45,626 nucleotides of DNA from a virus (Duplodnaviria; Heunggongvirae; Uroviricota; Caudoviricetes), in IMG/VR virus record IMGVR_UViG_2579779076_000011. One strand, given 5' to 3'. This document shows positions 13,228-15,464 of this stretch, in pieces (positions within the stretch are counted from its first letter, which is position 1; each line of letters begins with the position of its first letter). The translations under genes were made by a program, and so were the position numbers. A model generated the notes under the pieces. That model was not told the origin of the DNA. It worked only from the letters and a program-made list of their open reading frames with translations, and made no database searches.

Positions 13228-14463
13228 TCAGAATTTCCGTTCTTTCCAGCGTTTAACCAACGCGGCCATGTTCAGCGGCCATAATTTAGGCTCAATCACT
13301 TTGCCTTCAAACATCGCGCCGAGCTCAATACCTAGGGCAAAATGTACGGTCATTGTTTCAGGGTTGACGGCCATCAGCTCTGCGTCTAGTAAGTCGTGTA
13401 TCGTTGGAGTCAACAACAGGCCATTATCAGCGCTAAAATTGCCTGAGGTAGCTGGCTCAATGTGCGCCGCTTGCAATCGTTCGCCGTTCTGCCAGCCAGT
13501 CACCGCGCAACGGCCAGCAAAATTATTCCATACCCATTCAACAAACTGCATATGCGCCGTCGTGTCGCGCTGCTCAACGATGCGCTGCGCGGTTCGGGTA
13601 CTGTGGAGTTTGACAGGTTGGCCAAGCGCGGGCGCGGGTTTCTCTTCCTCCACGACGACCACTACTTCCTGCGACATGATGATTCGATCATCGGCTACCA
13701 GTTCCGGAACAACGTCGGCCAGCTTCTCGGCTTCTCGGATGATTTGCTTTTCTTCCTGATCATCCAGGTACCGCTGCACCAGTTCAATGGTCGTGGTGGC
13801 TTCATGCTGGTGTTTGTGGATATAAAGCTCAACATCACGACGCTGGCTGGCTGGAATGTGTTTTGCCAGAAAATCCTGTAGGACGCGATTATCCAGCTTT
13901 GTCGTAACTTTTGATGTCATGCTCACAGAATCATACCGTTTCGGTGTTTCCATCTGCGTTGATTGCAGGCCTGGTAATTCGGTGTTGATTTGAGCGGAAA
14001 CCTTGCGCGGGATGATTGTCGGCGTAAATGCTGGCGTGCTGGCCTGGGACGTGCCACGGCGACGGGCATTCTCCCAAAGGGCTTCTGTTTCAGGGTTTTT
14101 GCGTGCGCCTGGCTTTTGCATAGGCATAGTGCGAATCAGCGCTTCCCAGCCCATATTGACCTTCTGTTTGGCCTCGCGGCGTTTATCGGCCAGCGTAGGT
14201 TTTGATGGTCGTTTTTTGGAGAGCGCTTTCTCTGGTTTTAATTTGATGCCGCGCGATAAACCATTTATCAGTGTTGGATGCACTGATAAGGCTTTGGCCA
14301 ATTGCAAACCGTTTAAATTGCTGCCATCTGTATAAGCGTACATAAACAAATCCGCCCAGCCATCATGTTGAGGGGTCATACCCACGCTGGTTAAGGCTGC
14401 GCGAATCTCTTTTTTGCGAGCTTTGTCCAAGTTAAATTTTGGGGTTTTATTTCGCTTAGTCAT
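13228..14463 (-). CDS. HNH-type nuclease domain protein (C-terminal HNH), N-terminal basic low-complexity region
   Basis: C-terminal GRCAVTGW..AAHI..NGLLLTPTIHDLLD fits an HNH-like motif; N-terminal ~250 aa Lys/Arg-rich with no recognised domain. Confidence 0.55.
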   Translation of the reverse strand: MTKRNKTPKFNLDKARKKEIRAALTSVGMTPQHDGWADLFMYAYTDGSNLNGLQLAKALSVHPTLINGLSRGIKLKPEKALSKKRPSKPTLADKRREAKQKVNMGWEALIRTMPMQKPGARKNPETEALWENARRRGTSQASTPAFTPTIIPRKVSAQINTELPGLQSTQMETPKRYDSVSMTSKVTTKLDNRVLQDFLAKHIPASQRRDVELYIHKHQHEATTTIELVQRYLDDQEEKQIIREAEKLADVVPELVADDRIIMSQEVVVVVEEEKPAPALGQPVKLHSTRTAQRIVEQRDTTAHMQFVEWVWNNFAGRCAVTGWQNGERLQAAHIEPATSGNFSADNGLLLTPTIHDLLDAELMAVNPETMTVHFALGIELGAMFEGKVIEPKLWPLNMAALVKRWKERKF

Positions 14464-14543
14464 TTCAGTTCAGCACACTAATAATGGTAACCATGACCGC
14501 AGCAAACACGATCCCCGAAATATTCATTACTGCCATATATTGG

Positions 14544-15350
14544 CTACGATCTAAAATCCCGTTCCATTCCGAAATCAAATCCGGGTGAATATCTCACAGG
14601 AGACATAGCACCTTTTTTTCTGAGATCATCAGGGATCTTCTTACCTAAATAAAGCTGTGTAATCTCAGGAGGTGCAGCCCTACCCCGGAACCCAAAGCGG
14701 GAACTTTGCGTAGCTTCAAATTCATCATCCGCATCCCATGAGGGTATCTCTGGAAAATTCTCACGGGTAGACTTGAGCCACTCATCTGCGATATATACAC
14801 CCCTCACAATTCCTCTTACTGTCGCCAGTATGACCTCAGCCTTACGAGCGCGTTCAAGGCTGACACGCCAGCTAAAACGTACAGCATCATAGAGGTCAAT
14901 ATCCTTTGAGCTTCTGTTAACCGATATCATTAGGGTCTTATGTTGGAACGTAATTGTTTCAGGTTGGTACGTAGCGATTAATTCTTTGATGTGTGCAGCA
15001 CCGAACTCGTTACTGCCAGCACCGTTCATGATGTTAGTCAAGCCGGGATAGGCGTCTATGAGAGCTGCTTCAACTTCGTAAGCCGTTTTTTCTTCAGCCA
15101 TACCGTGCCGATGTATAACATGGATAACCTCAAGACCAGCTAATCTGATCTCCCGAAGTTGTTTGAGTTTGTTACTCAGTAACTCATCATCATCATCCAC
15201 TGCAGCAACCTCACCACGCATATGGGCAAAAACACGATTACCTTTCCCTTTCCCTACGTAGAACGTACTGCCATCTCTCGGGTCAATCAGGCGGTAGACA
15301 TACCAGCCAAGATGTTCGATTACTCCCGGTGGAAATTCATTAATATCCAT
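14544..15350 (-). CDS. GIY-YIG nuclease domain protein
   Basis: N-terminal [28 protein letters not shown] matches the GIY-YIG core; C-terminal ~170 aa unassigned. Start taken at ATG 15350 (ORF track extends to GTG 15395). Confidence 0.6.
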
Positions 15351-15464
15351 ATTACAGCACCAAAATTTAACCTTTTCATCGCAAAATATACACAATCATG
15401 TCAATTGACAACTTATAGTTCCCACTAGTTAGCATTAAGATTTTTACAGTGAGGAATAATCAAT

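Follow-up and report, generated by a model that had tools for sequence, protein, structure and literature searches.

A predicted PD-T4-3/CMoRE gene and an orphan HNH_2 nuclease gene, probably brought together by cassette recombination in a lambdoid prophage cargo hotspot

Two neighboring nuclease genes in the window (the whole 45,626-nucleotide stretch of DNA that was analyzed, IMG/VR record IMGVR_UViG_2579779076_000011) are best explained as independent single-gene nucleases that were probably brought side by side by cassette recombination in a cargo hotspot of a lambdoid Escherichia coli prophage at tRNA-Ser/mtfA. As judged from sequence, the GIY-YIG gene is PD-T4-3/CMoRE, an already characterized type IV restriction enzyme that acts against T-even phages as a single gene. 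Its neighbor appears to be a rare stand-alone HNH_2 nuclease with a catalytic domain of the TagI/VcaM4I/McrA kind; its N-terminal half is basic and has a novel fold. The genes lie as follows.

14544..15395, minus strand: GIY-YIG open reading frame, including a TTG start at 15395
14544..15350, minus strand: PD-T4-3/CMoRE gene as assigned by profile and structure matches, 268 aa plus stop, ATG start at 15350
13228..14463, minus strand: orphan HNH_2 nuclease gene, 411 aa

Both open reading frames are real and co-oriented on the minus strand with an 80-bp spacer (14464-14543), in agreement with the preliminary description of this DNA, and the nuclease motifs that it noticed in both proteins scored above curated thresholds. 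The LEM-3_GIY-YIG profile matched the first protein with 49.2 bits (cut-off 27, E value of 7e-13), and Pfam HNH_2 (PF13391) matched the second with 34 bits (cut-off 21, E value of 2.6e-8). The GIY-YIG reading frame does extend to 15395 as described, but the start placed there does not hold: position 15395 is a TTG, while all profiles, PDB chains, and RefSeq begin at the ATG at 15350.

The PADLOC PD-T4-3 model (PDLC04031) matched the GIY-YIG protein with an E value of 6.9e-138 over positions 1-254 of its 256, and residues 1-258 matched PDB entries 9U7U, the E. coli APEC O1 enzyme (E value of 9e-164), and 9U75, that of O157:H7 (E value of 4e-151). The following parts are distinguished in the protein.

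15051-15350, minus strand: GIY-YIG nuclease domain, aa ~1-100
14580-15023, minus strand: 5hmC/5ghmC-sensing domain, aa ~110-257
14547-14579, minus strand: allele-specific 11-aa C-terminal tail of PD-T4-3

The three tyrosines of the GIYxY-YIG motif, as defined in PMC12923530, are all present (Y17, Y19, and Y31, counted from the 15350 ATG), and an acidic autoinhibitory loop, VDDDDELL at aa 51-58, aligns with the VDD-DELL loop of 9U7U. The alignment of the C-terminal domain reaches the last residue of both 9U7U and 9U75. This domain of 170 aa, which had been regarded as unassigned, now corresponds to the modification-sensing domain of CMoRE (PDB 9U7U/9U75; PMC12923530). The window protein thus shares with the published enzymes of E. 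coli APEC O1 and O157:H7, to which it aligns, the motif, the acidic loop, the C-terminal sensor domain, the single-gene organization, and carriage by a prophage. Its acidic loop is longer by one Asp (DDDDE versus DDDE), it carries the 11-residue C-terminal extension that is absent from the crystallized proteins, and its location is different, since the gene lies in a lambdoid nin-like hotspot and not at the tail-fiber end of a prophage. The tail extends past the end of the sensor domain and arose where one nucleotide found in Citrobacter and in strain SF-166 is deleted, which abolishes the ancestral stop codon. The gene has a dN/dS of 0.06 to 0.08.

CMoRE (Cytosine Modification Restriction Endonuclease; structures 9U7U, 9U7Z, 9U75, and 9U8D, PMC12923530) acts on T4-like phages by cutting their modified DNA; its mechanism and its single-component status have both been described (PMC12923530, PMC12366544). 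All 274 surveyed PD-T4-3/CMoRE systems are reported to be single component, and the original source strain of PD-T4-3 is ECOR68 (PMC12923530); single-gene sufficiency is also supported by the NILS69 knockout study. A passage of Vassallo et al. 2022 (PMC9519451) mentions "a GIY-YIG nuclease." Cleavage of 5hmC/5ghmC DNA and restriction of T-even phages were shown for homologues ~95% and ~87% identical to the window protein. Family membership is what was tested here, and we infer the activity of this allele from the published proteins that are ~95% identical, whose mechanism would operate as follows. The C-terminal domain would bind DNA carrying 5-hydroxymethyl- or glucosyl-hydroxymethyl-cytosine, the N-terminal GIYxY-YIG domain would then degrade the bound modified DNA, and the acidic loop would normally keep the active site blocked; a lysogen would in this way be protected from T-even phages. 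The earlier suggestion of an uncharacterized defense system is half right for this gene: the defense reading stands, but PD-T4-3/CMoRE is known.

The HNH protein is less familiar. Its C-terminal nuclease domain follows a long N-terminal half, and three parts are distinguished.

14254-14433, minus strand: predicted basic N-terminal helical domain, aa 11-70
13711-13896, minus strand: predicted second helical domain, aa 190-251
13231-13578, minus strand: HNH domain and C-terminal extension, aa 296-411

The N-terminal layout comprises a basic helical stretch (aa 11-141), a disordered linker (aa 146-188), and the helical domain at aa 190-251. In an AlphaFold model built from a 47-sequence input (mean pLDDT of 77.6), the predicted helical domains at aa 11-70 and 190-251 reach a pLDDT of about 90. 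The N terminus had been called long, basic, and low in complexity; it is indeed basic (pI of 10.2 to 10.7 for aa 1-190), but it is more than low-complexity sequence, being conserved in the family with predicted folded helical domains. The catalytic residues H334, N347, and H356 are invariant among 47 relatives.

The structures closest to the HNH domain among the top structural matches are the modification-dependent enzymes TagI (6GHS) and VcaM4I (6YEX, PMC7897488), followed by the more distant EcoKMcrA (6GHC), and the VcaM4I profile match had an E value of 3e-7. TagI and VcaM4I are PUA-superfamily-HNH modification-dependent enzymes; unlike them, the window protein has no detectable SRA, EVE, or PUA reader domain. 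Its N-terminal 295 residues had no match in Pfam or PDB and no similarity to any modification reader, and a fold search of BFVD with the protein returned only matches to the HNH domain. PADLOC gave only weak HNH-motif matches (E value of 7e-5). Like enzymes of the TagI/VcaM4I type, the HNH gene has no cognate methyltransferase: no methyltransferase family matched any island protein, and the annotation of the 47-kb E24377A region contains no methyltransferase. Because a methyltransferase partner is missing, and given its nuclease domain, the enzyme is probably type IV-like or otherwise self-restrained. A role as the restriction subunit of a type II restriction-modification system was rejected on the same absence of a nearby methyltransferase. 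The HNH domain is also weakly similar to that of the CBASS effector Cap5 (SAVED-HNH, 8FMH; Foldseek E value of about 0.09); a Cap5-like effector was rejected because, in addition to this weak fold match, the protein lacks a SAVED sensor domain and no cyclase gene lies nearby.

The HNH family is rare, with five clusters at 90% identity. Its lineages are 59 to 65% identical, the open reading frame is intact, and dN/dS over the five lineages is 0.23 to 0.32, while the upstream neighbor gene is decaying. With the pattern used, a search of 185,579 species-representative genomes found no further full-length relatives and returned two distant C-terminal matches; relatives of the C-terminal domain number about 2,000. 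Scans of viral and metagenome contigs recovered only the same E. coli prophage, and a phage GenBank collection gave no DNA match to the gene and only partial, C-terminal protein matches. A complete Lamassu LmuA/LmuB pair is found 2.4 kb from one homologue, and RES and GmrSD_N genes are near another. We consider the HNH gene a modest candidate for a new stand-alone defense nuclease, which would target DNA as a second defense enzyme acting separately from PD-T4-3.

The boundary between the two genes reads, from sequence comparison, as a recombination scar.

14465..14539, minus strand: last 23 codons of a gene for a FUSC-like membrane protein, left as a 3'-end remnant

An intact 153-aa FUSC-like gene from another HNH locus (L004) matches window positions 14539..14471 in a tblastn search, and a FUSC-like gene remnant precedes the HNH gene at all six loci. 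The remnant joins the PD-T4-3 module at about 14536-14540. It can be read as a mini-open reading frame of 20 to 23 codons, MAVMNISGIVFAAVMVTIISVLN, with its stop codon 1 nt before the HNH ATG. Over 66 nt, the remnant is 73 to 89% identical between lineages, and the differences are spread evenly over codon positions.

Prophage defense hotspots are exchangeable cargo sites between conserved prophage genes and have been described for P2/P4-like elements. The two nuclease genes lie in a region of this type.

12485..19619, no strand: variable cargo hotspot of the lambdoid prophage, bounded on one side by the conserved LprI-family gene and on the other by conserved genes (213-aa, DUF1367, DUF1364, and Q antiterminator)
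11160..12083, minus strand: LprI-family lipoprotein gene, 307 aa
12487..15483, no strand: cassette A (lipoprotein, HNH, and putative PD-T4-3 genes), one block also found in a Citrobacter freundii prophage
12536..13096, minus strand: 186-aa lipoprotein gene, which moves together with the HNH gene as part of the 3-kb cassette
15516..19473, no strand: cassette B, low GC (0.32 to 0.40), with open reading frames of 459 aa (plus strand), a 220-aa membrane protein (minus strand), and 259 aa (minus strand)

Strains E62 and SK1144 carry related prophages that have the same flanks up to 12484/12492 and from 19619/19712, while the genes between differ; the E62 cargo includes a capP-like peptidase. The LprI flank is present in 735 of 5,426 E. 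coli genomes, with homology ending at ~12484, and the full island is present in six. Cassette A was found by blastn in the Citrobacter prophage (locus L002) with 91% identity over 12487-13096 and 90.5% over 13090-15483, at another prophage position that adjoins DinI and tail-fiber genes. In metagenome locus L020, cassette A is kept, while cassette B is replaced by PDC-S39 (E value of 3.9e-265) and a PDC-S31-like gene, and cassette B is thus separable from cassette A. The open reading frames of cassette B had no family matches in profile searches, and no island protein had an NCBIfam match above noise. The likeness to described defense hotspots lies in conserved flanks (735 genomes) around alternative cargo: PD-T4-3 (validated), PDC-S39, the PDC-S31-like gene, and the capP-like peptidase. 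The difference from P2/P4-like hotspots is that the element is a lambdoid prophage at tRNA-Ser/mtfA, with the site between the replication genes and the Q antiterminator gene. The arrangement had been thought unusual for a temperate prophage; given the alternative cargo of related prophages, it is instead an ordinary exchangeable cargo/defense hotspot.

The two lipoprotein genes reported downstream of the nuclease pair are present, with lipoboxes L-S-G-C (186 aa) and L-T-G-C (307 aa). The larger belongs to the LprI family (Pfam LprI, E value of 5.4e-8; phrog_5094, E value of 5e-184) and is part of the prophage backbone, outside the mobile cassette. The smaller matched no family in Pfam, PADLOC, NCBIfam, or PHROGs; a 91% identical copy follows the HNH gene in the Citrobacter prophage, and its dN/dS is 0.31.

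Gene content was then compared across genomes. PD-T4-3 is found in ~950 of 5,426 complete E. coli genomes, and the HNH gene in 6 of the 5,426, all in one prophage; PD-T4-3 without the HNH gene thus accounts for roughly 950 genomes. A two-gene query matched 969 genomes, with both genes covered in only six, and 14 plasmids matched the HNH gene over only a 220-bp motif. Three of the five HNH lineages (L003, L004/5, and L006/7) have no GIY-YIG gene, and the two that carry the pair share one cassette. Conversely, PD-T4-3 occurs without an HNH neighbor in SF-166 and O157:H7, and a single-gene module (14539-15480) is common to SF-166 and the window with 88.6% identity. On these counts and on the FUSC remnant at the junction, a two-gene GIY-YIG and HNH system was rejected, and with it the two-nuclease module of the preliminary description. 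The GIY-YIG gene is a known single enzyme, and the HNH gene was probably placed next to it by recombination.

One alternative would be a functional two-layer module, in which PD-T4-3 destroys hmC/ghmC DNA, the HNH protein covers what escapes it (such as phages whose cytosines are unmodified or modified in another way, or anti-restriction escapees), and the cassette is selected as a unit. The block of lipoprotein, HNH, and PD-T4-3 genes retains ~90% DNA identity between E. coli and Citrobacter prophages at different positions, its three open reading frames are intact and under purifying selection, the nuclease genes run in the same direction and the 80 bp that separate them contain no terminator-like site, and the HNH domain resembles modification-dependent enzymes. 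We nevertheless regard this module as distinctly improbable: the pair is confined to one ancestral cassette, PD-T4-3 is sufficient alone in published assays, the junction is the truncation scar of another gene, and parts of the cassette have been swapped independently. It is somewhat easier to imagine, although still unlikely, that the HNH gene does not serve defense at all and is a phage-benefit or selfish nuclease (a nin-like recombination/replication accessory or a toxin-like effector) or a decaying relic. Defense models do not match it, its family is very rare, flanking genes are in decay, and the site between the replication genes and Q is where lambdoid phages carry accessory genes of DNA metabolism. 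However, the selection on its intact reading frame and the invariance of its catalytic residues across lineages 59 to 65% identical speak against this reading, as do its occurrence outside prophages in islands beside Lamassu, RES, and GmrSD_N genes, the defense candidates among the alternative cargo of the hotspot, and the grouping of its nuclease domain with restriction enzymes and not with recombination nucleases.

GIY-YIG and HNH folds are both found in phage homing endonucleases, and one or both genes could be free-standing endonucleases of this kind, propagated by cleavage of empty alleles in phages related to this one. A review of His-Me nucleases places the T4 Mob enzymes in the HNH group (PMC5714182), and PD-T4-3 does move by itself, in a compact module that is sharply bordered at 14539-15480. 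This alternative, which had been offered for the pair, is nonetheless very remote. Published experiments show PD-T4-3 to be a modification-dependent restriction enzyme that has its own dedicated sensor domain, profile searches found NUMOD, IENR1, or AP2-type DNA-binding domains in neither protein, and the best structural matches of the HNH domain are restriction enzymes. Moreover, related prophages differ by replacement of multigene cassettes and not by the precise presence or absence of one gene, and the HNH gene always carries the same upstream gene remnant along.

If the two genes are independent nucleases joined by recombination, the HNH gene would probably be transcribed by read-through from the PD-T4-3 promoter, and its translation may be coupled to the leader of 20 to 23 codons left from the former upstream gene. 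A candidate promoter was found upstream of PD-T4-3.

15383..15411, minus strand: sigma-70-like promoter candidate, weak (9 of 12 consensus matches), inside the module 14539-15480

Sites in the promoter and terminator scans were no more numerous than in shuffled sequence, and because these calls are weak, we only infer cotranscription. Any gain from the pairing would be additive breadth of defense and not a joint mechanism. A bolder proposal is that the HNH protein founds a new family of stand-alone, restriction-like defense nucleases. Its new N-terminal module, basic and helical, would recognize foreign or modified DNA, and the gene would stay linked to PD-T4-3 in a portable 3-kb cassette because the two enzymes cover complementary phage sets, such as T-even phages whose cytosines carry different hypermodifications or none. 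We consider this conceivable but doubtful.

For annotation, the GIY-YIG gene should be labeled PD-T4-3/CMoRE (putative type IV restriction of hmC phages) and not a novel system. The pairing illustrates how defense genes are assembled in prophage cargo hotspots by cassette recombination, with datable scars such as the FUSC-gene remnant. If the HNH family restricts phages, it would represent a new sensor architecture for HNH_2 restriction enzymes, and modification-dependent enzymes of this kind are also of use as epigenetic tools. Overall, the advance is incremental and holds no surprise. The 3-kb cassette is conserved with both nuclease genes intact in E. coli and in Citrobacter, as could be the case if the combination had some selective value.

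Two ORFs on the minus strand, 80 bp apart, encode a GIY-YIG protein and an HNH protein and are followed on the same strand by two lipoprotein genes, as the preliminary description reported. Pfam scores for both nuclease proteins lie above the gathering thresholds, so both motifs are real and not chance resemblances. The features of the region are as follows.

11160..12083, minus strand, 307-aa LprI-family lipoprotein ORF, lipobox LTGC
12536..13096, minus strand, 186-aa lipoprotein ORF, lipobox LSGC
13228..14463, minus strand, HNH ORF; Pfam HNH_2 at aa 319-367 (34 bits versus 21, E 2.6e-8)
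14465-14539, minus strand, 3' end of a FUSC-like gene upstream of the HNH gene, also kept in loci L002, L003, L004 (there as part of the intact gene), L006, and L007
14544..15395, minus strand, GIY-YIG ORF; Pfam LEM-3_GIY-YIG (49.2 bits versus a gathering score of 27, E 7e-13)
15676-17055, plus strand, 459-aa ORF in a low-GC block
17378-18040, minus strand, 220-aa multi-pass membrane protein in the low-GC block
18519-19298, minus strand, 259-aa ORF in the low-GC block

The GIY-YIG gene belongs to the PD-T4-3/CMoRE (Cytosine Modification Restriction Endonuclease) family. Its product matches the PADLOC PD-T4-3 model end to end (E 6.9e-138), and residues 1 to 258 can be aligned to the crystallised enzymes of E. 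coli APEC O1 (9U7U, E 9e-164) and O157:H7 (9U75, E 4e-151). The gene stands where it was first placed except at its upper end: position 15395 is a TTG, while the profiles, both PDB chains, and RefSeq begin at the ATG at 15350, which gives a protein of 268 aa. CMoRE is a single-component type IV modification-dependent endonuclease in which the GIY-YIG domain degrades DNA, the C-terminal domain binds 5hmC and glucosyl-5hmC, and an acidic loop protects against self-cleavage (PMC12923530). The C-terminal domain formerly called unassigned is this 5hmC/glucosyl-5hmC-binding domain. In a separate study, a PD-T4-3 homologue restricted T-even phages in a modification-dependent manner, and knockout work showed activity in a native host. 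The GIY-YIG half of the pair, crystal structures included, is already known.

Comparison of the window PD-T4-3 gene with its homologues gave dN/dS values of 0.06 to 0.08. Relative to the alleles of a Citrobacter freundii prophage (L002) and E. coli SF-166 (L008), the window allele (14544-14580, minus strand) has lost 1 nt of the run GGTTTTTGA, immediately ahead of the ancestral stop codon; this abolishes the stop and lengthens the C terminus of the sensor domain by 11 residues. The allele would be expected to be active despite this tail.

The HNH gene is directly supported as an intact, selected gene for a predicted HNH_2 nuclease of the restriction-enzyme type. Its 411-aa product matches phrog_23050 (unknown function) over its full length. 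The family is rare: a collection of 5.8 billion proteins holds only five clusters at 90% identity. When 1.84 billion cluster representatives were searched with a profile, 2177 relatives were returned, nearly all of which share only the C-terminal ∼120 residues; about ten share the entire architecture. Among 47 relatives, no Pfam domain other than HNH_2 was found save a few zinc fingers. The catalytic residues H334, N347, and H356 are invariant in the family, as are R299, C319, G348, and W406. In an AlphaFold model based on 47 sequences (mean pLDDT of 77.6), the HNH domain (aa 296-411, pLDDT of >95) and two helical domains (aa 11-70 and 190-251) are confident, and the linkers are disordered. 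The N-terminal 190 residues are basic, as had been noted (pI 10.2 to 10.7), and match nothing. Across five lineages dN/dS is 0.23 to 0.32, which indicates that the gene is kept by selection.

The HNH sequence profile matches the nuclease domain of VcaM4I (6YEX; PMC7897488) with an E value of 3e-7, and the nuclease modules of the modification-dependent enzymes TagI and VcaM4I may serve as a working likeness for this half of the pair. PUA-HNH type IV enzymes possess a reader domain; the window protein does not and so falls outside that group. The most fitting label is an HNH_2 restriction-type nuclease, so far uncharacterised, whose N-terminal architecture is novel. No methyltransferase was found in the island or its annotated surroundings. 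The protein could be a second defence nuclease acting independently of PD-T4-3, probably self-restrained through modification dependence or other sensing by its basic N-terminal half. Transcription starting at the PD-T4-3 promoter might read through into its gene; the scans, though weak, gave no terminator-like site between the two genes. The HNH gene, alone or with PD-T4-3, is one candidate worth testing in plaque assays.

The pair had been proposed as a new two-nuclease module, which would recur across genomes, or as free-standing homing endonucleases, which neither gene resembles. A two-gene query matched 969 complete E. coli genomes, only 6 of which cover both genes. The HNH gene occurs in these six genomes too; a further 14 plasmids match over 220 bp, limited to the motif. 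PD-T4-3 is present without the HNH gene in SF-166, where its neighbours are a DinI pseudogene and a DUF262 gene, and in O157:H7, where it adjoins pinE; the window shares with SF-166 only 14539-15480, that is, one gene and its upstream region. The pair is present in the C. freundii prophage, where a lipoprotein-HNH-PD-T4-3 block at a different prophage position matches 12487-15483 at ∼90% DNA identity; this is one ancestral cassette and not an independent co-occurrence. Of the other HNH lineages, L003 belongs to a different lambdoid prophage, L004 to an island that also holds RES and GmrSD_N genes, and L006 has a complete Lamassu LmuA/LmuB pair at a distance of 2.4 kb. In L006 (2821-5600), the Lamassu pair (LmuA, E 1.3e-194; LmuB, E 3.4e-304) and a 505-aa RES-domain gene on the opposite side of the HNH homologue P0005 make a clear defence-island context. 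By these counts and contexts, the two genes are not a unit and the pair is not a new system; the evolutionary independence of the two genes is directly supported. In SF-166 (L008, 7862-9751), the stand-alone PD-T4-3 and its DUF262 (GmrSD-like) neighbour are a further case of modification-dependent nucleases grouped at a prophage end near ssrA.

The adjacency has left a scar. In L004 an intact gene for a 153-aa FUSC-like membrane protein precedes the HNH gene, its stop codon abutting the HNH start (TAAAATG). L003, L006, and L007 retain only its last ∼55 codons, frameshifted, and the window and Citrobacter only the last 23 (window 14539..14471). Homology to the SF-166 PD-T4-3 module stops where the remnant begins (∼14536-14540), which indicates that recombination removing the former neighbour of HNH created the adjacency. 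All HNH-family loci keep an open mini-frame of 20 to 23 codons with its stop 1 nt before the HNH ATG. Its 66 nt are 73 to 89% identical between lineages, matching HNH coding identity or, in several pairs, exceeding it (L003-L004, 88% versus 72%; L004-L006, 86% versus 71%), and the three codon positions differ about equally, with no third-position concentration. Constraint appears to act on the nucleotides; in this small sample, a regulatory function, plausibly translational coupling or a ribosome-loading leader, seems likelier than a peptide.

In four of six HNH contexts, a small exported protein gene comes next on the same strand (window 12536-13096; L002 9427-10014; L003 7614-8006; L004 9403-9801). 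The products are a 186/195-aa lipoprotein, a 130-aa TolA-like lipoprotein, or a 132-aa signal-peptide repeat protein, with no homology among the three kinds by BLASTP. In Citrobacter, part of the 132-aa gene also survives as a remnant, located between the HNH and lipoprotein genes.

A prophage 99.7 to 99.9% identical to the region is present in six complete E. coli genomes, among them E24377A and SE11. That of E24377A is lambdoid, integrated beside tRNA-Ser and mtfA, and collinear with most of the window; its island is flanked by replication genes (replicative helicase, ORF6N protein) and DUF1367/DUF1364/Q antiterminator genes. The LprI-family gene, carried by 735 of 5426 genomes with homology ending at about 12484, is prophage backbone. 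Related prophages of strains E62 and SK1144 match the window flanks as far as 12484/12492 and from 19619/19712 onward, with different genes between them, including those for another GIY-YIG protein and for two peptidases of ImmA/IrrE type (capP-like). In the metagenomic variant L020, 11012-15515 is retained and exactly 15516-19473 is exchanged for PDC-S39, a full-length PADLOC candidate (E 3.9e-265), and a PDC-S31-like gene. Such swaps between shared flanks identify the island as an exchangeable hotspot built from separable cassettes, and its carriage of defence candidates elsewhere is directly supported. The region is an ordinary prophage defence hotspot of low interest. The exchanged low-GC block (0.32 to 0.40) fills a defence-cargo slot; its three ORFs have no match in Pfam, PADLOC, NCBIfam, or PHROGs, and it may be an unrecognised defence system.

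Short repeated segments at the hotspot edges may be linkers for cassette exchange. Positions 11012-11092 (82 bp) are 92.7% identical to a second site adjoining the ImmA/IrrE pair in loci L011 and L012, 19469-19628 matches a site inside L012 at 88% identity, and 19540-19628 is 81% identical to an L020 site beyond the LprI gene. In the E24377A prophage (L001, 37217-40917), the portal gene is split by an IS21-family ISEc62 insertion. The window copy (28939-28944) is free of it, and the window prophage may therefore still be functional.
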